A stretch of 64,000 nucleotides of DNA from assembly GCA_963770895.1 (NCBI GenBank), contig CAVYRF010000002.1:5472001-5536000 (forward strand), read 5' to 3'. A program made the position numbers and the translations under genes. Positions 32,723 to 53,090 of this stretch are shown piece by piece. Numbering within the stretch: position 1 is the first letter of the stretch; every line of letters starts with the position of its first letter. This stretch comes from an uncultured Acidobacteriota bacterium (GTDB lineage Bacteria; Acidobacteriota; Thermoanaerobaculia; Multivoradales; UBA5704). The notes under the pieces were generated by a model. The model was not told where the DNA came from. It saw nothing but the letters and a program-made list of their open reading frames with translations, and ran no database searches.

Positions 32723-34192
32723 ATGGCGCAAACGATCAAGGTCGGGCTCTTCGCAACCCTTTGCCTGGCCATTCTTGCGGTCTTGATCTGGAAGGTCGAA
32801 GACATCGATCCGTTCCACAAGGGCGGGCGGCGCATCTACGCCATCTTTCCGTCGGTCGCCGGCCTGGACGACAAGTCGGCGGTGCGCATGGCCGGCGTGC
32901 GCGTCGGCCGCGTGGACGGGATCACCCTGGCTTCCGACGGCCGCAGCGCCAAGGTGCGCCTGCAGCTGGAGCAGCCGGTGACGCTGACCGAAGGGGCCTC
33001 GGCGCGCATCGCCAACCTGGGCCTGCTGGGCGACAAATACGTCGAGCTGGTGCCGGGACCTGCCGGCGCGCCGGCGCTGCCGGCCGAAGCCGAGCTCAAG
33101 GGCACCACGCCGGTCAGCTTCGACGACGCCATGGCCAAGCTCGACAACATCGGCAGCTCGATCGAAAAGATGACCGGTTCGTTCGGCGGCGGCAACCTGG
33201 GAGGCAACATCAACAACCTGGTGCAGGATCTCCAGCTGACCAGCGCCGAGATCCGCGCCCTGGTGGCCGAAAACCGTGCAAACCTGGCTTCGACGGTGCG
33301 CAACTTCGACGCCTTGAGCGCCACGCTCGCCCGCGAGCTGCCGATGATCTCCGCCCAAACCCAGCGGGCGCTCGACCAGATCGCTTCGGTGATCGCCGAA
33401 AACCGCGGCGACCTGTCCGCCAGCATGGGCAACGTCAAGGAGATCACCGGCAGCCTGCAGACCTCGGTGGAAAACCTCAACAAGATCACCGGCGAGATCG
33501 CCAGCGGCCACGGCACGGTCGGCAAGCTGGTCAACAGCGAAGAGGCCTACAACAGCGCCGTCTCGACCCTCGACAGCATCAAGTCGGGCGTCGAAAGCCT
33601 GAGCGGCACGATCGGCGCCATCCAGCGCTTCAAGATGGACCTGGATCTGCAAGGCTACCTGTTGCAGCGCCAACCCAACACCTTTTCCGCCTCGCACAGC
33701 GCGTTCTCGGTGGTCATCGATCCGCAGGACAACCAGCGCCTGTACAAGGTCGGCATCGTCACCACCCCCGAAGGCACCACGCGCAACCGCATCGACACCG
33801 TCGCCTACACCTCGCCCACCGGCCAGACCTACAACGCCGTGGTCAACGACGTCATCACCGAAGACCACCTGCAATACGACGCCCTGCTGGGCTTTCACAC
33901 CGACAACGACCTGCGCTTCTGGGGCGGCATCATCGAAAGCACCGGCGGCGTACAGGTCGAATATCCCTTCCTGCGCCGCTACTGGCTCTCCTTCGAAGCT
34001 TTCGACTTCAACCGCCCCAACAACGAGCGAGCCCACCTCCGCCTGACCGCCAAGTGGCAGTTCCACCCCAACCTCTACGTCATCGGCGGCTACGACGACC
34101 CCCTGCAGCAGCGCGCCTTCTTCATCGGCGCCGGCATCCGCTGGAAGGACGACAACCTCAAGTACCTGCTGGGGGCGGCCTCCAAGTTCTAG
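32723..34192 (+). CDS. mlaD: Long MlaD/MCE protein (TM-MCE-helical stalk-beta-rich C-terminus)
   Basis: VAGLDDKSAVRMAGVRVGRV, GLLGDKYVEL, GTVGKLV, aromatic-rich beta C-terminus. Confidence 0.88.
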   Translation: MAQTIKVGLFATLCLAILAVLIWKVEDIDPFHKGGRRIYAIFPSVAGLDDKSAVRMAGVRVGRVDGITLASDGRSAKVRLQLEQPVTLTEGASARIANLGLLGDKYVELVPGPAGAPALPAEAELKGTTPVSFDDAMAKLDNIGSSIEKMTGSFGGGNLGGNINNLVQDLQLTSAEIRALVAENRANLASTVRNFDALSATLARELPMISAQTQRALDQIASVIAENRGDLSASMGNVKEITGSLQTSVENLNKITGEIASGHGTVGKLVNSEEAYNSAVSTLDSIKSGVESLSGTIGAIQRFKMDLDLQGYLLQRQPNTFSASHSAFSVVIDPQDNQRLYKVGIVTTPEGTTRNRIDTVAYTSPTGQTYNAVVNDVITEDHLQYDALLGFHTDNDLRFWGGIIESTGGVQVEYPFLRRYWLSFEAFDFNRPNNERAHLRLTAKWQFHPNLYVIGGYDDPLQQRAFFIGAGIRWKDDNLKYLLGAASKF

Positions 34193-34257: not shown

Positions 34258-35619
34258 ATGCCTTACCCCCTGCCCGAGAGGGACTGGCGCGATCTGCTGC
34301 GCCGGGTCCACCATCGCCAGGTCATCCCGGTGGTGGGGCCCAGCCTTGTTACGGTGCCCGACCCGGCGAGCGGCGAACTGGTTCCCCTGCACCGGCACCT
34401 CGCGCCCTCGCTCGCTCGCGGGCTGGGTCTGGCCGCGCCTGAGAGCTTCACGTCCTGGAACGACGTCGCGCGCGCCCACCTTCTGGGAGGTGGCAAGCGC
34501 GAGCTCGTTTACGACGAGCTGCGCGCGCTCCTCGACCAGGTGCCGGCCGACCCGCCCCCTGCCTTGCTGGCGCTGGCGAGCATCACCGACTTCGATCTCT
34601 TCATCAGCAGCACTCCGGACGGCCTCCTCGCGCACGCGCTCAGGCGCCAGAGACCGGAATTCTCGCCGAAAACGGGCGTCATCCGCTTTCATCCACGCGG
34701 TCTTGGCGGCGAGTCTTGCGATCTGCCGGCGAAGTTCAATGGTCCGCTCCTGCACCACATCCTGGGCGACGCCGACACCTACCCGGACTTCGCGGTGTGG
34801 GAAGAGGACTACATGGAGTTCATCTGCGGCTTGCTCGAACAGGCAGATACGCTCGAGAATCTCTTTCGCGTCCTCAAGAGCCGTCACCTCCTGCTGCTGG
34901 GCGCCCCGTCGGAGGACTGGATCGTGCGCTTCTTCCTGCGAGTGGCACGCCAGCAGCGGCTGTCCGAGTGCAACCAGCACGACTACCTTGCCGATCAGGC
35001 CGCGAGTCTGGGCGATCCGATGATCCTCTTCTTCGACCAGGCGGTGAAGGCGGCGCGCGTGATCGCCGGTCCGCCCGCGGCATTCGTCCAGACCTTGGAG
35101 TGCGCTTGGCGCGAGAAATACGGCGCGGCAGGCAGCGACGAGGAGTTCCTTGGTCGGATGCCGGCAGAGATTCCCCGCGGCGCCGTCTTCATCAGCTATG
35201 CGCGCGACGATCTCGGTGCGGCCGTCAAGCTCGCGCGGGCGCTTGAGAGCGCCGGTGTGCCGGTGTGGCTGGACAGGATCCGCCTGGAGGTTGGCGCCAA
35301 CTACGAGCGCAGCCTGCAGCACGAGGTCAAGGACGCCTGCAGCTTCTTCATCTCGCTCATCTCCAAGGCGACGGAAGCCGATCCGTTACGGTATGTCCAC
35401 CGTGAACGCGCCTGGGCAGCACAGCGGCACGTCGACGGATTCGTTTTCTACCTGCCCCTGGTGCTCGACCTGGACGAAGCGACGCCGGCTCGCCTCGAGC
35501 CCGAGTGCATCCGCCAGAGCCACTACGATCGGTGGAACGATACGACCCTCGGCAACTTCGTGCTGCGCGTGCGGGACCTGGTGGACGAGTTCCGGCGCGC
35601 GGGGCGGCCTCGGGGTTGA
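34258..35619 (+). CDS. Degenerate SIR2-like domain fused to a TIR domain
   Basis: VIPVVGPSL, FISSTPDGLL, LHHILG, LLLLGAPSEDW resemble eroded SIR2 motifs; TIR VFISYARDD, VPVWLD, FISLISK, YVHRE. Confidence 0.8.
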   Translation: MPYPLPERDWRDLLRRVHHRQVIPVVGPSLVTVPDPASGELVPLHRHLAPSLARGLGLAAPESFTSWNDVARAHLLGGGKRELVYDELRALLDQVPADPPPALLALASITDFDLFISSTPDGLLAHALRRQRPEFSPKTGVIRFHPRGLGGESCDLPAKFNGPLLHHILGDADTYPDFAVWEEDYMEFICGLLEQADTLENLFRVLKSRHLLLLGAPSEDWIVRFFLRVARQQRLSECNQHDYLADQAASLGDPMILFFDQAVKAARVIAGPPAAFVQTLECAWREKYGAAGSDEEFLGRMPAEIPRGAVFISYARDDLGAAVKLARALESAGVPVWLDRIRLEVGANYERSLQHEVKDACSFFISLISKATEADPLRYVHRERAWAAQRHVDGFVFYLPLVLDLDEATPARLEPECIRQSHYDRWNDTTLGNFVLRVRDLVDEFRRAGRPRG

Positions 35620-38240
35620 TGCCGATGGCCGAAAGAGGCTCAGACCCGAAGGTCGATCCAGAGCTGCCCTGGCTCGGCCTGCTGCCGTTCACCGAGGCAA
35701 CCCAACGCTTCTTCTTCGGCCGCAACCAGGAGATTTTGGAGGGTTTCCTGCGCGTGCGCGAGCACCCGCTGACGGTGCTCTACGGCCCGTCGGGTCTGGG
35801 CAAGAGCTCCCTGCTCGGCGCCGGACTGATCCCCAAGCTGCGCGTCGAGGGCTACCGGCCCGTCCTCATCCGGCTGCGCTTCGAGGATGGCGATCCGCCG
35901 CTTCTTGCACAGGTCGAGGGGGCGCTTGCCGCGCTGCTGCAAGCGCGCGGCGATGCAGTGGCGGTCGGCAGGGGAGAGGCGGGCCGATCCACGGATCCGA
36001 CCCTGTGGGAGCGCTTCCACCACCTGGCGACACGGCCACCCGATCTGGCCGCCGCGCCGCCGGTGCTGCTCTTCGACCAGTTCGAAGAGGTGTTCACCCT
36101 TGCCGAGCGTTCGGCCGCGCGCCAGGGCGAGGCCAAGGCTCTCTTCGACCAGCTGGCCGACCTGATCGAGAACCGGCCGCCCGCCCCGCTCCAGGATCGC
36201 CTGCGGGTGCAGCGCGAGCTGGCGCGGGATTTCGACTTCGCGGCCAGCCCCGTGCGCGTCGTGCTGACGCTGCGCGAGGACTACCTGTCGCAGCTCGAAG
36301 CCTGGAAGAAAGTGCTGCCAGCGCTGATGCGCAACCGCATGGGCCTGCGCCTCCTCGACGGAGTCAACGCCCTGGCCGCCGTCGTCGAGCCCGGACGCCT
36401 GGGCGATCACCAGCTGGTCAGCCGCAGCGTCGGCGAGCGCATCGTGCGCTTCGTCGCCCGGCGTCCCGAAGGCACCCCGCTTGCGGAGATCGGCGCGGTC
36501 CCCCCCTTGCTCAGCCTGCTCTGTTACGAGCTCAACGCAGCGCGCATCGCAGCGGGGGCAGCAGTCGTCGGCGCCGAGCAGGTGGACCAGCAAGGCACCG
36601 ATATCCTGCAAAATTTCTACGACCGCAGCTTCACCGGGTTGGGCCCAGCGGTCCGCAGCTACGTCGAAGACCGCATGATCACCGTCGGCGGCCACCGCAA
36701 CGCGGTGGCTCGCGAGGACGCCGTTGCCGCTCTTCTCGATGCCGGTGTCGAGCATCCCGCGGCTGCCCTGGACCAGCTGGTGGATGGGCGCCTGCTGGCG
36801 GCGGAAGACTTGGGAGGGCTCCAGCGGCTGGAGATCAGCCACGACGTGCTGGCGCCGCTCGCGGAGCGCTCGCGCGAGCAGCGGCGGGCGCGGGAACGCG
36901 CCGAGCGCGCCGAGGCCGAGGAGCGCGAGGCGGCGGCGCGCGAGGCGGCCGCCCGGCGTCAGCGCGCCCGCCTGCGCTGGATTGTCGTGGCCATGTCGGT
37001 CCTTGCCCTGGCCGCATTGATACTCGCCGGCGCCGCCTATCGCGCCGGCCAGCGGGCGGCGAGACTGCTTGAAGAGGCTTCGCGCAAGGCGACAGGGAGC
37101 GCCCTATCGAGCTTCGACCGGCAGGACCCTCGCGCCGGCATGGCCTACCTGGCGGAGGCCATCCGTTATCGCCCCGACGACGTTTTTCCGCGAACCGCTG
37201 CAGCTTCCTACCTGCTCAGGCTGCCGACGATCGCACCCATGCTGGTGGGCGAGCCCCTGCACCACGACGGGTGGGTGACGGCAGCGAGCTTCAGTCCCGA
37301 TAGCCGCTTGGTGGTGACGGCGAGCACGAACAATACGGCGCGAGTATGGGAGGTGGCGAGCGGTCGACCGGTCGGCGCGTCCCTGCGCCATGCCGACACG
37401 GTCTGGGCTGCGAGCTTCAGTCCCAATGGCCGCTGGGTGGTGACGGCGAGCGCGGACAAGACGGCGCGGGTGTGGGATGCGGCGAGCGGCCGACCGGTCG
37501 GCGAGCCCCTACGCCATGCCGACAGGGTGACGGCTGCGAGCTTCAGTCCCGATGGTCGCTGGGTGGTGACGGCGAGCGATGACCATACGGCGCGAGTGTG
37601 GGATGCGGCGAGCGGCCGACCGGTCGGCGAGCCCCTACGCCATGCCGACAGGGTGACGGCAGCGAGCTTCAGTCCCGATAGCCGCTTGGTGGTGACGGCG
37701 AGCGATGACCATACGGCGCGAGTATGGGAGGCGGCGAGCGGTCGACCGATCGCGAAACCCCTGCGTCATGGCGGCACGGTACTGGCAGCGAGCTTCAGTC
37801 CTGATGGCCGCTGGGTGGTGACGGCGAGCGATGCCGGCACGGCGCGAGTATGGGAGGTGGCGAGCGGTCGACCGGTCGGCGAGCCCCTGCGCCATGACGG
37901 CGCAGTCTGGGCAGCGAGCTTCAGTCCCGATGGTCGCTGGGTGGTGACGGCGAGCGATGACCATACGGCGCGAGTGTGGGAGGCGGCAAGCGGTCGTCTT
38001 GTCGGCGAGCCCTTACGCCATGGCGACAAGGTGGGGGTTGCGAGCTTCAGTCCCGATGGTCGCTGGGTGGTGACGGCGAGCGATGACAAAACGGTGCGAG
38101 TGTGGGAGGCGGCTAGCGGTCGACCGGTCGGCGAGCCCCTGCGCCATGGTGGGAGTGTGCTGGCTGCGAGCTTCAGTTCCGATGGTCGCTGGGTGGTGAC
38201 GGCGAGCGCGGACAAGACGGTGTGGATGTGGGAGGCGGCG

Positions 38241-39685
38241 CAGTAATGTCCGGTTAGAAGTCGAACAGAATGAGTTGGTTAGCCGCAGTGCGCAGTTCTC
38301 GCTGGGACCGGTCAGGCTGGAAAGCGCATGAAACCTCGGTTTTCTCGAAGACCGAGACCGACAAGATCTGTAGACATGTGTAGAGCGAGGCATCGAGTTG
38401 AAGCTCCTTCTTAAGGATGGCAATCAGCACGTAGGTCGCGACGGCGCACCAGATTTGCGTCTTCACGGCGTTCTCGCTGGTGCCCAGGAATCGCTTGATG
38501 CGCAGATGTTGCTTGATCCACTTGAAGAACAGCTCGACCTGCCATCGGCTCTTGTACAAGGCAGCGATCGCCAACGGTGGCAAAGTCGTGTTGTTTGTCA
38601 GGAAAACAAGCGTCTTGCCCGAAAAGGGGTCCTTGAAACGGACGCGCCGCAAATGCTCCGGGTAGGCCTTGGCCGAGTAGAAGCCATTGAGCATCACGCG
38701 CTGGTCGCAGATCACGCCAGTGGCGCGTTGCGTCTCAAACGAATACACCCGCCGGGCGGCCATTCCATGCTTGGCGCGGGTGACGAAGAAGGCTCCGGTC
38801 TGATGCATCGCATAGAGCCGCGCGAAGTCGACATAGCCGCGATCCATGACGTAGAAGGCTCCAGCCTCGACGGGCAGGATGTCGAGCACGTTCACATCGT
38901 GAAGTTTGCCGTCGCTGATGAGGATGAACGTTGGAATCGCGCCGCGCAGGTCCAGAAGCGTATGCAGCTTGACCGCCGCCCTGGTCGATTGAAACGGCGC
39001 CCAGTCGAACAGGCTCAGGCACAGATCGATGGTGGTGGAGTCGAGGGCGTAGACGCTGGTGTCGAGATCGAGGACCGAAGGCTCTTGCGCATAGAGTGCT
39101 CTGGCGCGCACGATCAGCCGCTGAGCCAGCGCCTGATAGATACGCCAGTCGCGACGCTCGAGCGCGTCGGCCAGCGTCGAGCGGGCGGGCGCTGCCTTGA
39201 TTCCCATGTGGAAGAGCTTGCCTTGATTGGCAGCGAGGCAAGCCTCGATGTCGCGCAGAGACTCGCGCCAAGTGAGCTGCGCGAAGGCCATGATACGGAA
39301 CAGGTCGGCGCAACTGAGGGTACGAACGCCAGCATCGCCCTTGTGTCGCTCGATGATGCGTCCGAAGGTCTTCCAGGGGACGAACTCCATCACCTGTGCG
39401 AACAGCGTCTTGCCCACGTTCATGCGTCACCTCGGATCGGTCTGACCCGAGAGCATCGCAAATCGTCTGCTCAAGATGGGGCATCGCGGTGAAGTGCGGG
39501 GAGCGTGCCTCAGGCCTCAACCGCGGTCTCGAGCCGTCGAGCTCGGAGCCGCCCTTTGCACCGGACTCCAGGTCATCCTGTACGCAAGGCCAGGAATTCA
39601 AATCGTGGACACCCATCGGAGGCCGCAAGTGCCAGTCACTGCCACGTTTGTGGCAACAGGTCGCCAAAACAACCGGACACTACTG
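38241..39685 (-). mobile_element. IS4-family insertion sequence, 1445 bp
   Basis: Terminal IRs CAGTAATGTCCGGTT / AACCGGACACTACTG (14/15); 9-bp direct repeat GAGGCGGCG at 38232-38240 and 39686-39694. Confidence 0.95.
38254..39423 (-). CDS. IS4-family DDE transposase (DUF4372-like N-terminus)
   Basis: ALDSTTIDL, VKLHTLLD, VMDRGY, YKSRWQVELFFKWIKQ (YREK motif). Confidence 0.95.
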   Translation of the reverse strand: MNVGKTLFAQVMEFVPWKTFGRIIERHKGDAGVRTLSCADLFRIMAFAQLTWRESLRDIEACLAANQGKLFHMGIKAAPARSTLADALERRDWRIYQALAQRLIVRARALYAQEPSVLDLDTSVYALDSTTIDLCLSLFDWAPFQSTRAAVKLHTLLDLRGAIPTFILISDGKLHDVNVLDILPVEAGAFYVMDRGYVDFARLYAMHQTGAFFVTRAKHGMAARRVYSFETQRATGVICDQRVMLNGFYSAKAYPEHLRRVRFKDPFSGKTLVFLTNNTTLPPLAIAALYKSRWQVELFFKWIKQHLRIKRFLGTSENAVKTQIWCAVATYVLIAILKKELQLDASLYTCLQILSVSVFEKTEVSCAFQPDRSQRELRTAANQLILFDF

Positions 39686-41645
39686 GAGGCGGCGAGTAGT
39701 CGACCGGTCGGCGAGCCCCTGCGCCATGACCGGAAGGTGAGGGCAGCGAGCTTCAGTCCCGATGGCCGTTGGGTGGTGACGGCGAGCGCGGACGGTATGG
39801 CGCGAGTGTGGGAGGCGGCTAGCGGTCAACCGGTCGGCGAGTACCTGCGCCATGAAGGCTCGGTTTTGGCAGCGAGCTTCAGTCCCAATGGCCGCTGGGT
39901 GGTGACGGCGAGCGCGGACGGGACGGCGCAGGTGTGGGAGCCGGTGAGCGGTCGTCGGGTCGGTGCGCCCCTGCGCCATGACTCCACGATCTGGGCTGCG
40001 AGCTTCAGTCCTGATGGCCGCTGGGTGGTGACGGCGAGCGCGGATCATACGGCGCGGGTGTGGGAAGCGGCGAGCGGTCGCCTTGTCGGCAAGCCCCTGC
40101 GCCATGAAGGCTCGGTTTTGGCTGCGAGGTTCAGTCCCGATGGCCGCTGGGTGGTGACGGCGAGCGATGATCATACGGCGCGACTGTGGGAGGCGGCGAG
40201 CGGTCGAGCGGTCGGCGAGCCCCTACACCATGGCGGCAAGGTGACGGATGCGAGGTTCAGTCCCGATGGCCGTTGGGTGGTGACGGCGAGCGCGGACGGG
40301 ACGGCGCGGGTGTGGGAGGCGGCGAACGGTCAGGCGGTCGGTAAGCCGCTGCGCCATGGCTCCTTCGTGCTGTCTGCGAGCTTCAGTCCCGATGGCCTCT
40401 GGGTGGTGACGGCGAGCGCGGACGGGACGGCGCAGGTGTGGGAGGCGGCGAATGGTCAGGCGGTCGGTAAGCCGTTGCGCCATGGCTCCTTCGTGCTGTC
40501 TGCGAGCTTCAGTCCCAACGGCCTCTGGGTGGTGACGGCGAGCGGTGACCGTACGGCGCAAGTGTGGGAGGCGGCGAGTGGTCGACCGGTCGGCGAGCCC
40601 CTGCGCCATGGCCGCACGGTCTGGGCAGCGAGCTTCAGTCCCGATGGCCGCTGGGTGGTGACGGCAAGCGATGACCAGACAGCGCGGGTGTGGGAGGCGC
40701 CGAGTGGTGATCTGGGTAAGGCCGCGTCCTCTGCGCTGATGGCGGTCGCAGGCCGCCGGGTTTCCGACGATGGCTTGCTGGTAGACGTGCCCCTCAAGGA
40801 CCGCTTGGAGTGGCGCGAACGGCTTCGGGCCAAACCCCAGGACGGCGCGGAGGGGGATCGCATCCTGCGTTGGTATCTGGCTCAACCGCGCACGCGCCTA
40901 ATCTCGCCACGCGCCACGCTCACAGTGCCGCAGCTGATCGAGCGCGAGATCGATTGGGGAATGGCTCACCTGCTGGAAGACCCCGACAGCGTTTTCAACG
41001 CTGCCTACGACCTCGACCCCGCTCATCCGCTGATCCTCTTCGCCCTGAGTGCGATCGAGCACAACCCGGCGACTCTCAAGCTGTATCGCGACCTCGGCCT
41101 GAAGCGCCTGCCCGCGGATGCGCGCCTCTGCACCCGCGCCGCGGAGATCCTGAAGGCCGCGGGCGACCGGCCGCGCGCCGCCGCCGCTGCCGAGAAGGCG
41201 CTTGCCCTCGATCCGCGCTACCCCCCGGCTCTGGCCGTGCGAACCTGGGCTGCCGCGGGCCATTGAAGAGCAGGAAGCCCACGCCGCGCGAGAAGCACCG
41301 CGGCTCGAGCCAGCGCCTACCCCTCGCATTGCGCCGCCTTCTTCTTTTACAGGAAATCGGCTGAGTCGCGGGCTGGTGCGGCTCAGGATACTCACCGGCG
41401 CGACTGCCAGGTCGAGCGCAGCCCGCGGTGTTGCGGAAGGGAGATGGGCTCGGAAAGGGCGTTGCGGCGGCGCGGGCAGGTTGTGGCGAGGAGGCGTGCG
41501 TCAGCTGGGTGGGTGACGAGCCGCCTGCGGCGCTGCGCTCCACGCGGCCGTGGCAGTCCCGCCGGCGTTTGCCGGTGCGGGAATCCTCCAACCATGTCCG
41601 TCCACTATGGTGACGGGGAGTCACGCCGACAAGGAGAGGATGCCC

Positions 41646-42629
41646 ATGGCCGGACCGCTCAACTTCGCCCAGATCAAGACCGAGATCGCCGACAAGCTCG
41701 ACATCCTTGACCGCACGCACGCAGCGCGGATGGCGGTGAGGGGCTACAACGCCGCTCCCGTCCCCCAACAGGCTGTGGAGCTTGCCGCCGTGCCTGCACT
41801 CGGCGCGGCGCCGGCAGCGCCGGGTCGCCGCACCTTTTCGCTGCTGGCACAGGGCGACTCCTGGTTCGATTATCCGCCGGGCACGGATCTCATCGACTGC
41901 TTGCACTCGAATCACGGCCATCGCATCACCAATATCGCCGTGGCCGGATCCACTTTAAATGACGAAGCCTACGGGCCGGTCCCGCGTGAGCTCTTCGGAC
42001 TGCCCTTCGGCTCGCCGCAGTCCGACGACCCATCGCGAATCGTCGAGTTGGTGCATCGCATCCAGACCGACAGGCCGCAGGGACTCCTGCTTTCCGCCGG
42101 GGGCAACGACGTGGCTGGCGACCCATTCTTCTCGTTCCTCAACAATTCCGAATCAGGCCTCAACCCGCTCAACCCCCAGGTGCTGCAGGGTGTTGTCACC
42201 GAGACGTTCCAAGCTGGCTACGAATACATCATTGATCATGCTCTGGCCGCCGCCCAGGAGGTCCACATCACCCTGCCGATCTTCCTCCACGGCTACGACT
42301 ATCCCTGGCCCGATGGCCGCGCGGTCATCTCTTTCCTTGGCTGGGGAGTCGGTCCCTGGTTCGATCCCGTGTTCAAGGTCAAGAACTTCCCCAACAACAA
42401 CGCGCAGGACCTGCAGCGGCGCCACGACATCCTGATACCGCTCATCGATGCCGTGAACGCGATGCAGCTGGCCCTGGCGCAGAAATATCCTGGGCAGGTC
42501 TTCCACGTGGACCTCACCCACACGCTCCAAACCCAAGGCGATTGGGCTAACGAGCTGCATCCGGGCAACCCCGGATTTGCCGCCCTCGCCGCCAAGATCG
42601 ACGCCAGCCTGCAACAGCACATGCCCTAG
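41646..42629 (+). CDS. SGNH/GDSL-hydrolase-like protein
   Basis: LAQGDSWFDYP (block I), LSAGGNDV (block III), HGYDY, WANELHP (block V); AAGGAGAGG SD, ATG 41640 or 41646. Confidence 0.82.
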   Translation: MAGPLNFAQIKTEIADKLDILDRTHAARMAVRGYNAAPVPQQAVELAAVPALGAAPAAPGRRTFSLLAQGDSWFDYPPGTDLIDCLHSNHGHRITNIAVAGSTLNDEAYGPVPRELFGLPFGSPQSDDPSRIVELVHRIQTDRPQGLLLSAGGNDVAGDPFFSFLNNSESGLNPLNPQVLQGVVTETFQAGYEYIIDHALAAAQEVHITLPIFLHGYDYPWPDGRAVISFLGWGVGPWFDPVFKVKNFPNNNAQDLQRRHDILIPLIDAVNAMQLALAQKYPGQVFHVDLTHTLQTQGDWANELHPGNPGFAALAAKIDASLQQHMP

Positions 42630-42842
42630 AGTGATCGTCGCGGCTGGTTGCGGACGCGGCCGCCGGCTTAGGCCGTTGGCCGTGGTGGCGCCGGGGAGGG
42701 CTCGGGCTGCCGGTGGCCGACGCACCGCGGCGGGTGCAGTGCCAGCGCGGTCGAGAAGGTGCCATCTGAGGTCTTAACTGGGCTCCCAGCCTGGCCGCAG
42801 CGGGATTCGGCTATCATCAGCCCGAGGACAGCAGAGGGAGGT

Positions 42843-43320
42843 ATGGACTTTGCGGAGGCGAAACAGATCCTGCAGGCCCTGGAACGGGAGCACGTTCGGT
42901 ACGTGCTCGTCGGTTCGATGGCCATGGCCGCACAGGGTATCGTGAGAGCGACCCGGGACATTGACCTCTTTGTAGCTCCGGATCACGAGAACGTGGAGCG
43001 TCTCCGCCGGGCGCTCGGCAGCGTCTTTGACGGCGACCCGAACCTCGATCAGATCACCGCCGACGACCTGGGTGGCGACTATCCGGCGATCGAGTATGTG
43101 CCACCTCACGGCGCCTACTCGCTCGACATTCTCGCTCGGCTCGGTGACGCTTTCAGCTACGATCAGATCGAGTTGGAGGTAACTGGTCGTTGACGGGACC
43201 CGCGTGCGTGTCGCGACTCCCCAGATGCCCCACCGCATGAAGCGCAATACCGTCCGTCCGCTTGACAGGGCCGATGCGGCGGCGCTCCGCGAACGCTTCA
43301 GTCTTTCCGAGGACGGTTGA
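42843..43320 (+). CDS. Pol-beta-superfamily nucleotidyltransferase (DUF6036/AbiEii-like), frameshifted near 43180
   Basis: YVLVGSMAM..G..RATRDIDL; +1 frame continues LVVDGTRVRVATPQM..MKRNTVRPLDRADAAAL to TGA 43320. Confidence 0.72.
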
Positions 43321-46432: not shown

Positions 46433-47935
46433 CTCTACTTTGTCAGATTCGTCGACGAGGTGGAGGCCCTGGATTGTTGCTGTCGGCGAGAGGCAGAGTC
46501 GATAGCGGCTTGACGTTGGCGGTGCCGGTTCTGCACCTGACGGATCGACTCCTCGATGTCGAGGTCCCGCCGGGGTAAGAGCCGAACGAGAAGATGCTTC
46601 ACGTCGGCAGCACTCAGGAGAGGAAGAGCCTCGCTCTGCAAGTGCTTCTCTTTCAGAATGAAAAGCAGCGCCATCATGACGAGGGCCATGTGGTGATACC
46701 AAGCTTGCCAGCTTCGCGCCTGGTATTCGTCCATGCCGGCCTCGTTCTTGGCTTCCTGGAAGGTACGTTCGACCCAGTAGCGCTGCCGCTGCATATAGGC
46801 CAACCGTTGCAAAGAGGTCTGCTCGACGGCATTGCTGAAGCTGTACTTGGTGGTGTCGGGCGCACCGATCTCGCGCGTCACGATCAACTGCCAACAGCGG
46901 GCTTGTGTCTCCGTGGCTTCGCGCACCCAGACGCGGCAACGCAGGGCTTGAACATGAAGCTCCCCTTGGGTCCCGCGCCGGACCCATACTTCTTGCCACG
47001 CTGCGGCCGGTTGGCGAGCAACCCATTCGTCCACGCGCACGTCTTCAGCGCGAGACTCCGGTGTCGCCCGACGTCGTTTGGCCCGACGCGGGTTGTCGAG
47101 AAAGACTCGTTGGTCTCGGTGAACATCGATGACAAACGTCTCATCGGCGTCGTCGAGGGCGCGCAGAAGAGCGCGATCCTGACCATACGTCCCATCCGCC
47201 GCTACCCAGGCAAAGTGCACTCCGTTGCGTCGTGCTCGTCGAACAAGATCCAGAGCCAACGCTGGCTTCGTCTTCATCACTCGGCGCTCAACCGGCACAC
47301 CCGCCGCGGCACATCGCGTTGGATCCTCGACCCACTCCCGCGGCAGGTACAGTTCGGCATCGATCAGGCTGACCCGCTTGCCTCGCGCCAATGCGGCGAA
47401 GACCGCCACCTGGCAGTTATCCGTCTTGCCCTGCAAGCCGAACCACTGCCGAGCTACGCCCACCGACCGAACGCCTTTCTTCGCAAAGCAGGTCTCGTCC
47501 AGCAGCAGGCAGGTGTCCTGATCACCGCCCAACAGCCCGCCGACCTCCTTCGCCACTTGATCCATGACGGCTCTCGCATCCCAAGGCGAGTGAGCGAGAA
47601 AGTGGTGCAGTGCCTGAGCCTCGGTGCCGGGCACCACCTCGGCCATCCGCTGGACGTTGCGCTTTGCGGCCTGCAACAAACCGCTCAGATACGCCCGTGC
47701 TTGCAAGTTCACGTCTCGGGTCCGCAGGCGGAAAAGAAGCGCAAATCCCTGCTGAAAGGCCAGGAATCGCGCTCCCAGCTCTTGCAGGGGAGCTGGGGCA
47801 TGGCGTCTCTCCTTCCGACTATGGTCCTTTGAGGGGAGGAAGCATCTGGTCTCGGCGAGAAATCATACTTTCTAGCCCAATTCTACGAGCTAACTGCCTT
47901 GGAATCAACTGCTTCCGAAGTCTGACAAAGTAGAG
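46433..47935 (-). mobile_element. IS701-family insertion sequence, full length (1503 bp)
   Basis: Perfect 15-bp IRs CTCTACTTTGTCAGA / TCTGACAAAGTAGAG enclosing a transposase. Confidence 0.93.
46435..47712 (-). CDS. IS701-family transposase
   Basis: LHHFLAHSPWD, LDETCFAKKGVRSVGVARQW, NCQVAV, ADGTYG, RYWVERTFQEAKNEAGMDEYQARSW. Confidence 0.93.
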   Translation of the reverse strand: MNLQARAYLSGLLQAAKRNVQRMAEVVPGTEAQALHHFLAHSPWDARAVMDQVAKEVGGLLGGDQDTCLLLDETCFAKKGVRSVGVARQWFGLQGKTDNCQVAVFAALARGKRVSLIDAELYLPREWVEDPTRCAAAGVPVERRVMKTKPALALDLVRRARRNGVHFAWVAADGTYGQDRALLRALDDADETFVIDVHRDQRVFLDNPRRAKRRRATPESRAEDVRVDEWVARQPAAAWQEVWVRRGTQGELHVQALRCRVWVREATETQARCWQLIVTREIGAPDTTKYSFSNAVEQTSLQRLAYMQRQRYWVERTFQEAKNEAGMDEYQARSWQAWYHHMALVMMALLFILKEKHLQSEALPLLSAADVKHLLVRLLPRRDLDIEESIRQVQNRHRQRQAAIDSASRRQQQSRASTSSTNLTK

Positions 47936-50420: not shown

Positions 50421-53090
50421 TTAGAAGCCGACGTAGACGCGCTGGATGCGGGGGCCCAGGCGAGCGAGGAGCTCGTAGGGGATGGTGTTGGCTTGGGCGG
50501 CGACGGATTCGGGGCGGAGGAGGGCGCCGTGGTGGGTGCCGAAGAGGAGGGCTTCGTCGCCGGCGGTGGCGGCGGGGGCGTTGGTGAGGTCGACGACCAG
50601 GGAATCCATCGAGATGCGGCCGAGGATGGGGGCGGGGTGGCCGGCGACCAGGGCGGCGCCGCGGTTGGAGAGGGACCAGGGGATGCCGTCGTGGTAGCCC
50701 AGGGGCAGGATGCCGGCGCGGACGTGGTCGCGATCGACCAGGTAGGTGCCGTTGTAGCCGACGCGGTCGCCGCGGGTGAGGGTGCGCACCTCGGCGATGC
50801 GGGATAGCAGGGTGACGGCGAGCTGGAGGGGCAGGGCCTGGGCGACGGCGGGGGAGGGGTAGAGGCCGTAGAGGCCCAGGCCCAGGCGCACCATGTCGTA
50901 GCGGGCTTGGGGGACGCGGGCGGCGGCGGCGGTGGCGGCGGCGTGGGTGAGCAGGGCGTGGAAGCCGGCGGCAGCCAGGGCGGCGCGCGCGGTGTCGAAG
51001 CGGGCCAGCTGGCGGCGGGTGTCGTCGTCGGCGCCGGGATCGTCGGCGCTGGCCAGGTGGGTCATGACTCCGGTGACGCGCAGGCCGGCGGCGACGGCGG
51101 CGCGGGCCAGCGGGACGGCCTGGTCCGGTGCGACGCCGACGCGGTGCATGCCGGTGTCGAGCTTCAGGTGGACGGTCAGCGGCAGGTCCGCCGGCCGCAG
51201 GGCGCGCGCTGCCGCTGCCAGCGGGGCGACCAGGGCGAAGGAGTAGAGGGCCGGGGTGAGGTCGAAGCGGGCCAGCTTTTCGGCTTCCTCGGCGGTGGGC
51301 AGGGTCACCAGGATGGGCAGGCGGATGCCCGCGCGGCGCAGCTCGGCTCCTTCGTCGGCGGTGGAGACCCCGAGGTGCTCGATGCCCGCTTCGGACAGCC
51401 AGGACGACAGGCGCACCAGGTCGCTGCCGTAGGCGACGGCCTTGACCATCGCCATGATGCGGGTCCGCGGGCCGCAGGCGCGGCGGAAGGCGGCGATGTT
51501 GCCCGCTACCGCGGCCAGGTCGACGATCAGGCGGTTGGGCGCCATCGCATCCACCAGGTCGAGCGCCGCGGCGTCGATGCCGCTGTGGCGCGGCCCCTTG
51601 AGCAGCAGGGTGTCGCCCGGGGCCAGGCGCCGCCGCAGCTCCTGCCGCACCGCGGCGACCGAATCGACAGCCAGCGCTTCGCCCTGCGGATAGGCTTCCA
51701 GGTAGGCCTGGCGGGTCGGCTCCATTTCGCCCGCGGAGGGGGGCGCGGCCAGGGCCTGGGGCTGGACCAGCAGCAGGGTGTCGAAGCGGTATTCGCCGGC
51801 GAGCGCGCCGACGGCGGCGTATTCGGCGGCGGCGCGCTGGCCCAGGTCGCGCATGCCGCCGAAGACGAAGAGCTTGCGGCGGTCCGGACGGGACAGCTCG
51901 GAGGTGGTGCGCAGCGCGGCGCGGACCGAGATCGGATCGGCGCTCACCAGGTCGTTGACCAGCGTGATGCCGCTGGGCGAGCGCCACACCTCCAGCCGGG
52001 TCGGCGGCGGGGCGTAGTCCTGCAGGCTGGCGACGATCTGGTCGTCGCTCACCCCCAGCAGGTGCGCGGCGCCGATCGCCATCATCAGGTCGTCGACGAT
52101 CTCCGCCGAGCGCGTGCGCACCCGCACGCGGTGGCGGGCGCCGGAAGGAAACAGGATCTCCAGCCGCTCGCTGAGGCCGCCGCCGGCGGGCCCGCCGGCC
52201 GGCAACAGGTCCGCCGCGCCGTCGGCGGGGTCCGCGCTGTCTGCGCCATCGGGCAGGCGGCCGGCCAGGCGGGGCAGCAGGGGGTCGTCGGGGTACGGCA
52301 CCAGCCGGCAGGCCAGGTGGGCGGCCTGGGCGGCGATCTCGGGATCGCCGCCCGGCAGCAGCAGCCAGCCGGCCATGGCGGCGAAGAGCGACAGCTTTTC
52401 GCGCGCCAGCTGGGCGCGGCCGGTGAAGGCGGCGATGTGCGCCAGGCCGACGTTGGTCAGGATGCCGCAGTCGGGGGCCAGGATGTCGGCCAGCGTTGCC
52501 ATCTCACCGGGAGCGGAGATACCGGCTTCGAAGACCGCGAGCGGGGTGCCCGGCGGGGCGGCGAGGACGGCCAGCGGCACGCCCAACTGGCTGTTGAAGC
52601 TGCCCGGGCTGGCGGCCACCTGGAACGTGCCGGCCAGCTGGTTGTAAAGCGCATCCTTGACCACCGTCTTGCCGTTGCTGCCGGTGATCGCCACCACCGT
52701 TCCCAGGTGGGCGCGGCGGTACCAGGCCGCCAGGCGTTGCAGTGCGGCGAGCGGCGATGCGACCGCGATCGACGGCAGGCCGGCGACCGCGGGCGTGCCG
52801 GCGGCGACCAGGGCCGCAGCCGCGCCCCCCGCCGCCGCCTGGGCGAGATACGCGTGGCCATCCACCAGCCGCCCCGGCAGCGCCACGAACAGCGACCGCG
52901 GCGCCATCCGGCGCGTATCGATGGCGATCGCTTCGACGCCGGGCCACGCCCCCGGATCGGTCGCGCCCACATCACCGGCATGGCTGGCGCCGACGGCGGC
53001 CGCCGTACCTATCCTCGCGGCATCCCCAGCGGCGGGGCGTAGTGTGCCGCCCACGATTTCCGCCACCTGGTCCGGTGCAAGGCGGATCAT
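50421..53090 (-). CDS. alr: Bifunctional MurF-like ligase / alanine racemase
   Basis: AITGSNGKTVVK, SFNSQLGVP, LLKG; MAMVKAVAYG (PLP Lys), HLKLDTGMHRVG, VGY, GRISMD. Confidence 0.92.
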   Translation of the reverse strand: MIRLAPDQVAEIVGGTLRPAAGDAARIGTAAAVGASHAGDVGATDPGAWPGVEAIAIDTRRMAPRSLFVALPGRLVDGHAYLAQAAAGGAAAALVAAGTPAVAGLPSIAVASPLAALQRLAAWYRRAHLGTVVAITGSNGKTVVKDALYNQLAGTFQVAASPGSFNSQLGVPLAVLAAPPGTPLAVFEAGISAPGEMATLADILAPDCGILTNVGLAHIAAFTGRAQLAREKLSLFAAMAGWLLLPGGDPEIAAQAAHLACRLVPYPDDPLLPRLAGRLPDGADSADPADGAADLLPAGGPAGGGLSERLEILFPSGARHRVRVRTRSAEIVDDLMMAIGAAHLLGVSDDQIVASLQDYAPPPTRLEVWRSPSGITLVNDLVSADPISVRAALRTTSELSRPDRRKLFVFGGMRDLGQRAAAEYAAVGALAGEYRFDTLLLVQPQALAAPPSAGEMEPTRQAYLEAYPQGEALAVDSVAAVRQELRRRLAPGDTLLLKGPRHSGIDAAALDLVDAMAPNRLIVDLAAVAGNIAAFRRACGPRTRIMAMVKAVAYGSDLVRLSSWLSEAGIEHLGVSTADEGAELRRAGIRLPILVTLPTAEEAEKLARFDLTPALYSFALVAPLAAAARALRPADLPLTVHLKLDTGMHRVGVAPDQAVPLARAAVAAGLRVTGVMTHLASADDPGADDDTRRQLARFDTARAALAAAGFHALLTHAAATAAAARVPQARYDMVRLGLGLYGLYPSPAVAQALPLQLAVTLLSRIAEVRTLTRGDRVGYNGTYLVDRDHVRAGILPLGYHDGIPWSLSNRGAALVAGHPAPILGRISMDSLVVDLTNAPAATAGDEALLFGTHHGALLRPESVAAQANTIPYELLARLGPRIQRVYVGF

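Follow-up and report, generated by a model that had tools for sequence, protein, structure and literature searches.

The window analyzed here, a 64,000-nt stretch of contig CAVYRF010000002.1 from an uncultured Acidobacteriota bacterium, carries two overlapping genes that together appear to encode a membrane-spanning receptor and its partner. Gene 1 encodes a protein with an N-terminal SIR2-like domain and a C-terminal TIR domain; gene 2 encodes an nSTAND1 NTPase followed by a single predicted transmembrane (TM) helix and a long array of WD40 repeats. All coordinates given below are positions in the window. On balance, it is probable that the pair belongs to an uncharacterized family of two-gene conflict systems akin to the nucleotide-binding leucine-rich-repeat receptors (NLRs), with a periplasmic sensor and a TIR domain that hydrolyzes NAD+ (NADase activity) as its output. 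The conflict would probably be one with invaders; we infer binding, the NADase output, and the immune role. Judged by its recurrence across genomes, the gene pair is a conserved split module found widely among bacteria, and the window holds a copy of it in which the receptor gene has been interrupted by an insertion sequence (IS).

The pairing itself was examined by scanning a single genome from each species, which yielded 488 loci with a relative of gene 1, the best 80 of which were kept. In 77/80 of these loci, the same strand carries an nSTAND1 homolog downstream of the gene 1 relative, and the three misses are contigs that end just past gene 1. The nSTAND1 gene begins within approximately 450 nt in 75 loci, and a 3–5 kb insert separates the genes in two. 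No further gene accompanies the pair consistently in the 80 loci, the largest cluster of flanking open reading frames (ORFs) being present in only 9/80, at mixed positions and in mixed orientations. The host genome contains three such pairs, and all three of its nSTAND1 copies of this type follow a pseudo-SIR2–TIR gene; a profile search of the genome recovered no further copy of the NTPase above a weak partial match. The initial annotation, made from the sequence of the window, had proposed a split two-gene system with reading frames overlapping by TGATG (35617–35621), and both parts of that proposal hold: the stop codon of gene 1 (TGA, 35617–35619) has its final A in common with the start codon of gene 2 (ATG, 35619–21), and the two-gene arrangement recurs. 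Record titles place the loci in the Acidobacteriota, Planctomycetota, Verrucomicrobiota, and Pseudomonadota. In six loci, ORFs extending gene 2 upstream were considered as fusions and ruled out from their coordinates, as out-of-frame open frames in GC-rich DNA. A 637-aa ORF (L020:12375–14288) and its relatives, found in 9/80 loci, show a weak match to DUF4231 (1.4e-3, below the cut-off).

The first conserved peculiarity of the module is its sirtuin. The SIR2-like domain of gene 1 is predicted to be catalytically dead, and the erosion of its active site is family-wide. SIR2 regions were aligned by MAFFT with P0124, an intact SIR2_2 protein encoded elsewhere in the window in which the motifs GAGVS, TTNFD, and KLHGS are all present, as reference; an hhalign comparison of the gene 1 family alignment (A1) with the single P0124 sequence returned a probability of 1.5 and no useful alignment. 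In the MAFFT alignment, gene 1 has T119 at the position of the catalytic Asn and L169 at that of the catalytic His; in gene 1 and both of its genome paralogs, the former position is Thr and the latter is either Leu or Phe, with the glycine loop also altered. When cluster representatives were searched with residues 1–300 of gene 1, pseudo-SIR2 sequences were recovered from 1326 clusters (50% identity) at E-values up to 1e-3, and from 817 at E-values up to 1e-10. Residues were counted in 119 aligned representatives of at least 400 aa, drawn from the best 150 of the 1326 clusters after 31 shorter sequences had been excluded. The His-equivalent position is occupied by His in none of the 119 (Leu in 68, Phe in 44, Met in 7), and the Asn-equivalent position by Asn in three; D121 is kept in 118/119 and G170 in 119/119. 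The aligned representatives of the gene 1 family thus all lack the His of SIR2 catalysis, and all but three lack the Asn, in line with the eroded motifs that the initial annotation had noted in this copy. The domain is nonetheless strongly conserved, with 60% mean column identity in A1. Because it is so highly conserved despite its dead site, it is to all appearances a pseudo-enzyme under selection, rather than an enzyme in decay.

The TIR domain presents the opposite picture. It is matched by Pfam TIR_2 over residues 310–411 (8.1e-14; 52.6 bits against a cut-off of 28), and E383 aligns, in the A1 family profile, with Glu77 of SPARTA TIR-APAZ chains. The passages of PMC9097488 on this enzyme report that exchange of Glu77 for Ala abolishes NADase activity. 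The Glu is retained in 113/119 representatives, in agreement with the catalytic-type Glu initially annotated, and the gene 1 TIR domain, which has the sequence features of a TIR NADase, looks catalytically competent. The two folds are recovered in an AlphaFold2 model of gene 1 built from 26 homologs, with a mean predicted local distance difference test (pLDDT) of 82.1. In Foldseek searches, the N-terminal domain resembles the SIR2 domains of EfAvs5, ThsA, DSR2, and KomBC (E-values 2.7e-8 to 1e-5), with EfAvs5 (9jap) the closest structure at 2.7e-8, and the C-terminal domain resembles PdTIR and BtTir (target-normalized TM-score, TMt, 0.70). A profile search of Protein Data Bank sequences with the gene 1 family retrieved TIR chains only, and none for the SIR2-like part. 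A hydropathy scan found no hydrophobic segment in gene 1. The protein ends in a nearly invariant tail (35599–35616; consensus SGRPRG) in which G449, P451, and R452 are kept across phyla; this tail may be a docking peptide.

The combination of a SIR2 fold and a TIR domain in one system recalls type I Thoeris (ThsA/ThsB), and with it an alternative reading of gene 1, in which the TIR domain would make an ADP-ribose (ADPR)-derived messenger and the dead SIR2 domain would act as its receptor or feedback sensor, in the place that SLOG holds in ThsA; killing would then fall to an unlinked effector or to the gene 1 protein's own assembly. This alternative would account for the retention of D121 and the nucleotide-loop glycines where the catalytic residues have been lost, and the whole gene 1 model does align with the SIR2 + SLOG chains of ThsA (8bto_A, 7uxt_B, 8btp_A) over 427–462 columns (query-normalized TM-score, TMq, 0.39–0.44). 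However, the root-mean-square deviation of that match is 12–14 Å, and it reflects the presence of two tandem Rossmann-like domains. In Thoeris, moreover, SIR2 is the active effector and TIR a separate sensor or synthase, whereas gene 1 carries both domains, has a dead SIR2, and is partnered by a STAND protein. The neighbor with the sub-threshold DUF4231 match in 9/80 loci speaks for this alternative. A linked signal-binding effector would be expected beside the TIR gene, but the pair has no conserved effector gene next to it, and the NCBIfam Thoeris model ThcB4, with a cut-off of 220, scores 23.3 bits. We therefore regard a Thoeris-like mechanism as quite improbable.

Gene 2 supplies the second half of the proposed conflict system. 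Its NTPase is matched by nSTAND1 (PF20703) over residues 17–436 (1.6e-35; 123.9 bits against a cut-off of 27.1), and the Walker A (G59, G61, K62) and Walker B (D153, E156, E157) residues are invariant in 26 aligned homologs. The annotated absence of an effector on this chain is borne out, as the profile begins at residue 17 and the homologs align from there, with no N-terminal effector or adaptor on the NTPase chain. The superstructure-forming repeats expected at the C-terminus of a classical STAND protein are present, though they lie past the TM helix. Pfam matches WD40 in eight stretches on either side of the IS (2.5e-74 for the 5′ part), and the 16 repeats initially counted are confirmed, each exactly 42 aa (126 nt) long with 83–85% matches; Tandem Repeats Finder (TRF) reports 8.1 copies at 39685–40708 in the second half. 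An array of 16 such repeats likely folds as two eight-bladed propellers. In the AlphaFold2 model of P0002, the 5′ part of gene 2 (residues 1–875; pLDDT 82.9), the NTPase is followed by a helix at residues 409–445, a second helix at 449–500 that holds the hydrophobic segment 454–474, two short helices, and the first propeller, which is modeled with pLDDT above 90 and matches the eight-bladed Tako8 designs (TMt 0.93). Two further features of the initial annotation survive in part: its "coiled coil" is a long charged helix predicted at 409–445 by DSSP on the model, and a coiled coil no further than that, and its "TPR-like tail" corresponds, in the approximately 190-aa C-terminal tail, to a single weak TPR_2 match (1.7e-3, below the cut-off).

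Topology was assessed from Kyte–Doolittle hydropathy windows, charge bias, and secondary structure in the AlphaFold2 models. The single TM helix that had been annotated at the sequence level (454–474 in P0002) is a family trait: exactly one hydrophobic segment is present in 70/70 gene 2 partners long enough to judge, 26–61 aa past a conserved ELTHD motif that marks the end of the NTPase module. Lys and Arg are more frequent in the 15 residues before this segment than in the 15 after it in 62/70 proteins, with seven ties and one reversal. In a Planctomycetaceae homolog (L029:9454–12774), the region past the helix contains five CxxCH motifs and is matched by Pfam cytochrome c554, c7, and MtrC-like models; heme of the c-type is attached outside the cytoplasm, and the region past the helix is therefore probably periplasmic. 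Since the ATPase and the signal-less TIR partner must be cytoplasmic, we strongly infer that gene 2 encodes a single-pass (type-II) membrane STAND protein, N-in and C-out, with its ATPase and charged helix on the cytoplasmic side and its sensor in the periplasm, as the initial annotation had envisaged for the sensor.

The alternative, that the helix serves only as a membrane anchor or does not span the membrane at all, would leave the WD40 repeats in the cytoplasm as a tethered sensor in the manner of Apaf-1. The modeled gene 2 chain does align with Apaf-1 chains (3j2t, 5juy, 3shf, 3sfz) over approximately 1000 columns; according to the relevant sections of PMC8195603, STAND proteins usually sense in the cytoplasm through WD40 and TPR repeats; and model confidence near the helix is low (pLDDT 47–79). 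However, a hydrophobic helix of approximately 21 residues in mid-protein, after a cytoplasmic ATPase, puts the remainder of the chain on the other side of the membrane, and a merely tethered sensor is difficult to reconcile with the constancy of the helix and the positive-inside bias across the partners, or with five c-type heme motifs past the helix in L029. We consider a cytoplasmic sensor very improbable.

What lies beyond the helix is variable: WD40, TPR, or helical repeats and, in one homolog, the five-heme cytochrome c. Among post-TM regions, WD40 is matched in 15/66 and TPR_2 in 13/66; of eight full-length partners scanned singly, three (L005, L021, L047) match nothing beyond nSTAND1, and FGE-sulfatase lectin domains follow WD40 in 14/120 among the homologs listed. 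The ectodomains of the three paralogs in the host genome all differ, one of the other two being approximately 200 aa without a Pfam match and the other, that of L086, WD40. These paralogous pairs (L085, G000:C2:5673000–5684500; L086, G000:C1:418000–429500) are 34–35% identical to the window copy in gene 1 and apparently uninterrupted; a 922-aa ORF beside the L085 pair was set aside as a low-complexity antisense frame without a Pfam match. Within gene 2 itself, the WD40 repeats are near-identical, with a small number of variable positions. Three differing ectodomains, together with these few-position differences among repeats, would fit a diversifying recognition surface.

A receptor of this build need not be an immune one. 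The same architecture could serve a non-immune purpose, with a periplasmic envelope, nutrient, redox, or kin cue acting on a STAND switch and the TIR domain serving physiology or development, as a signaling enzyme or a scaffold. The multiheme cytochrome ectodomain of L029, possibly a STAND NTPase with a redox-sensing ectodomain, suggests redox sensing; relatives of the NTPase carry a receiver (P0376) or a nucleotide cyclase (P0384), and relatives of gene 1 pair a kinase with the pseudo-SIR2 domain (P0196, P0226), all of which are at home in signaling of this kind, and PADLOC holds no match for gene 2. Yet the module has no conserved regulatory output, DNA-binding or otherwise, and several of its traits are instead typical of conflict systems: the retention of the TIR Glu in nearly all representatives, variable copy number and a patchy distribution among relatives, and ectodomains that vary and contain near-identical tandem repeats. 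The affinity to conflict systems is further seen in a gene 1 variant with bacterial Death-like domain 3 (bDLD3; P0168), and in the location of the window copy on an island with transposases, a SIR2_2-TPR gene, and an AbiEii-like fragment. We consider a purely physiological receptor unlikely.

How the two proteins of the proposed conflict system meet is less clear than that they belong together. One natural fusion (P0354, 928 aa) joins nSTAND1, the charged helix, pseudo-SIR2, and TIR in a single chain without a TM helix. Complex prediction for nSTAND1 (residues 1–440) with the gene 1 protein gave a score of 0.42, against 0.00 for the best control, with partner pLDDT of at least 81 and at least 91% of contacts common to the runs. 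In calibration, the 0.42 mark was reached by 58/80 solved complexes and 2/110 mismatched pairs; at scores of 0.60 or under, however, only seven of the 80 solved complexes pass, as do both passing mismatches. The claim that the inactive sirtuin is an adaptor thus stands as to the inactivity, which the residue counts support; the adaptor role itself is not established by one fusion and this prediction, which lend it weak support. Pseudo-SIR2 also occurs in other company: with a Ser/Thr kinase and without TIR in P0196 and P0226 (2 of the 150 best clusters), with TIR and an intervening bDLD3 in P0168, and between two TIR domains in P0272. The kinase-bearing proteins would fit a constant pseudo-SIR2 module that bears different enzymes.

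A working model of the conflict system can be outlined on this basis. The NTPase of a classical STAND protein is held in an autoinhibited state by the repeat domain, which folds back onto it. Because a membrane between the two prevents such autoinhibition, ligand-driven clustering or release of the ectodomains is the most likely trigger, as in single-pass receptors: a ligand or an envelope disturbance in the periplasm would cluster or release the ectodomains, the cytoplasmic nSTAND1 domains would then oligomerize in an NTP-dependent manner, and the receptor oligomer would recruit or concentrate the pseudo-SIR2–TIR protein. Clustered TIR domains could hydrolyze NAD+, leading to growth arrest or abortive death, or could make an ADPR-derived signal. 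The pseudo-sirtuin would most likely be a docking or assembly scaffold, or a nucleotide-binding regulatory domain.

Several observations weigh against this account. With fold-back autoinhibition ruled out by the membrane, the activation step is conjecture. The topology rests on hydropathy, charge bias, and a single cytochrome-bearing homolog, and some relatives swap the TM helix and ectodomain for TIR, pseudo-SIR2–TIR, a receiver, or a cyclase. Because P0373, P0354, P0376, and P0384 carry such other domains there, the region past the NTPase is not always a sensor; P0373, P0376, and P0384, nSTAND1 relatives without a TM helix or ectodomain, have a different TIR, the receiver, and the cyclase, respectively, the last two according to precomputed Pfam lists. 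The SIR2_2 match of the window copy is below threshold (6.7e-4; 20.2 bits against a cut-off of 24.5), so that among the three Pfam families named for this pair in the initial annotation TIR_2 and nSTAND1 alone exceed their cut-offs; both genome paralogs of gene 1 do pass the SIR2_2 cut-off (40.4 and 30.3 bits). Support from the complex prediction is weak, and no interface was returned. Finally, PADLOC has no model that matches gene 2 and only generic TIR-region matches for gene 1; because there is no PADLOC model for gene 2, the family is not tied to a validated defense system.

A bolder version of the model can also be framed, in which the pair would be a bacterial cross between a Toll-like receptor and an NLR. 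Ectodomains in the periplasm, hypervariable and of the WD40, TPR, or another type, would detect non-self (parts of an entering phage, a periplasmic predator, or a competitor's toxin) before it enters the cytoplasm; the single TM helix would relay clustering to the STAND domain, and the ATPase oligomer would nucleate a dead-sirtuin filament that switches on the TIR NADase. We hold this version tentatively, as possible though on the doubtful side. Toll-like receptors carry their TIR domain, in the cytoplasm, on the receptor chain itself, which has leucine-rich repeats as its ectodomain, one TM helix, and no NTPase. The gene pair resembles them by analogy only, in its repeat ectodomain, single TM helix, and TIR output; no homology of the receptors is implied.

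Among described systems, the module is most akin in its workings to two, a group of STAND-centered systems and, in topology, PCTM. The nSTAND1 NTPases and Death-like adaptors, bDLD3 among them, belong to counter-invader systems according to the sections of Kaur, Iyer, Burroughs, and Aravind (2021; PMC8195603) on these families. The module resembles those systems in its NTPase family, in a TIR-type effector on a separate or fused chain, in its variable sensors, in the bDLD3 variant, and further in the FGE-sulfatase lectin domains past WD40 in listed homologs of gene 2. As presented in those sections, the NTPase of the systems bears an adaptor or effector at its N-terminus, with no mention of a membrane helix or a SIR2-like partner; gene 2, in contrast, has 16 residues before its NTPase, a TM helix before its repeats, and a pseudo-SIR2–TIR partner. 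In topology, the module also resembles the proposed PCTM system, a ParA protein with a C-terminal TM domain (bioRxiv 10.64898/2026.10.19.760177). The NTPase of PCTM is, however, ParA (SIMIBI) rather than a STAND AAA+ protein, its upstream partner is a different one, and the part of that preprint describing the system reports no TIR or SIR2-like domain.

With Apaf-1, which joins NB-ARC to two WD40 propellers, gene 2 has in common an NTPase followed by two WD40 propellers, but in Apaf-1, a soluble protein with a CARD at its N-terminus, the propellers are in contact with the NTPase, whereas in gene 2 a membrane would intervene and no N-terminal adaptor is present. Like Avs5/SIR2-STAND and TIR-STAND (AVAST), the module couples a STAND NTPase to an NAD+-consuming domain, and EfAvs5 is the nearest structural match of gene 1's SIR2-like domain. 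An Avs protein is one cytoplasmic chain whose N-terminal effector is active. The gene pair differs from this in its separate effector protein, dead SIR2 fold, and sensor past a TM helix, and no PADLOC model fits gene 2. By sequence, the module falls outside Thoeris, Avs, and every PADLOC family. A full-text literature search returned no description of a pseudo-SIR2–TIR and nSTAND1-TM pair, with the limit that supplementary tables, which may list such architectures, lie outside such a search; nor is the pair described in the pertinent sections of PMC7159879, PMC8195603, 10.1101/2023.09.22.558884, and 10.64898/2025.12.03.692087.

The features of the locus are collected in the table.

Table. Features of the gene pair and the interrupting insertion sequence, in window coordinates.
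Feature	Position	Strand	Basis
Gene 1, pseudo-SIR2 + TIR protein P0001	34258..35619	+	ORF and translation, 453 aa
SIR2-like domain without catalytic Asn/His, ~residues 1–295	34258..35142	+	Alignment with P0124
TIR domain, ~residues 308–430, conserved Glu383	35179..35547	+	Pfam TIR_2
Gene 2, 5′ part (codons 1–874): nSTAND1, charged helix, TM, WD40 1–8	35619..38240	+	Translation, Pfam, model
nSTAND1 NTPase, residues 17–436, Walker A/B intact	35667..36926	+	Pfam
Long helix rich in Arg/Glu/Ala, residues 409–445	36843..36953	+	DSSP on AlphaFold2 model
Predicted TM helix, residues 454–474	36978..37040	+	Sole Kyte–Doolittle segment in P0002
WD40 repeats 1–8, 126-nt period	37244..38240	+	TRF, 7.9 copies, 85% matches
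Target-site duplication, left 9-bp copy	38232..38240	.	Read from sequence
IS4-family insertion sequence, 1445 bp, 15-nt terminal inverted repeats	38241..39685	-	Inverted-repeat search
IS4-family transposase P0003, 389 aa	38254..39423	-	NCBIfam NF033592, Pfam
Target-site duplication, right 9-bp copy	39686..39694	.	Read from sequence
Gene 2, 3′ part (523 codons + stop): WD40 9–16 and ~190-aa tail	39695..41266	+	Frame arithmetic, TRF

The state of this particular copy was underplayed in the initial annotation, for the receptor gene is interrupted by an IS and is probably non-functional. The element has all the marks of the IS4 family: a transposase (NF033592, 4.1e-82, 275.9 bits against a cut-off of 115; Pfam DUF4372 and DDE_Tnp_1), terminal inverted repeats, and a target-site duplication. 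It lies in the last strand of blade 8, between the two propellers. The frame of gene 2 is open from 35505, with the ATG at 35619 taken as the start, to a stop at 38246 within IS DNA, and is picked up in the same register at 39695. With the IS and one copy of the duplication removed, frame arithmetic places the codon at 39695 right after codon 874, in frame, for 1397 codons in all, and the join restores the WD40 repeat consensus WEAAS..; intact orthologs of gene 2 are 1320–1426 aa long with the same C-terminal tail (for example P0276, 1401 aa). The genome holds three full-length copies of the IS, each listed at 100% over 1445 nt (one with a slightly lower score), and one partial copy, and contigs from a public run (X1) show the same IS ends with unrelated flanks and a different 9-bp duplication. 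Because of these copies and the second 9-bp duplication context, the boundaries are sound and the insertion looks recent. Contigs of four public runs covering 36800–41300, sparse outside the IS, include none that joins 38240 to 39695. The IS itself recurs in contigs of the public runs, and in run X2 a contig spans the left junction of gene 2 and the IS without differences. Since the IS cuts the receptor after its first propeller, this receptor copy is most likely inactive, with gene 1 still intact.

The surroundings of the pair differ from the core genome. GC content at third codon positions (GC3) is 0.5–0.83 from 34243 to approximately 49300, against approximately 0.9 in the flanking core genes (DnaB, Mla, Mur). 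Among 30 relatives the module is patchy, being present in 10/18 genomes of the same family and in 0/12 from other families of the order, and the best identity to the window copy in these relatives is 37%, whereas the closest homologs elsewhere reach 87%. Patchiness among relatives, closer homologs elsewhere, and lower GC3 together point to horizontal acquisition of the locus. The low-GC3 stretch is flanked by MlaD (32723–34192) and by a gene fusing a Mur ligase to alanine racemase (50421–53090, −). It also includes a weak GDSL-like ORF (41550–42629), a weak AbiEii-like nucleotidyltransferase fragment (42759–43193), and a DDE_5/IS701-like transposase (46435–47712, −). The intact SIR2_2-TPR gene used above as reference (P0124; 44261–46231, +; 656 aa; SIR2_2 2.3e-11, TPR_12 1.9e-28) is probably a separate NAD+-targeting defense gene within the same island.

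The interest of the module lies in the joining of an extracytoplasmic sensor to an NLR-like switch and in its conserved pseudo-sirtuin, an interest tempered by the broken copy described here. To our knowledge, the characterized bacterial NLR-like defenses sense their triggers inside the cytoplasm. If the proposed conflict system is real, bacteria would also use NLR machinery to survey the envelope in the manner of receptors, and the module would offer a tractable model both for the switching of a STAND ATPase across a membrane and for the question of what purpose a conserved dead sirtuin fold serves. Were the Toll-like receptor–NLR hybrid to prove correct, prokaryotes would have in the module their first NLR for extracytoplasmic pattern recognition, and a pseudo-sirtuin would have gained a new use. 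Because the family is large and spans several phyla, with 1326 clusters and 488 loci, a functional result for any one pair would annotate many genomes.

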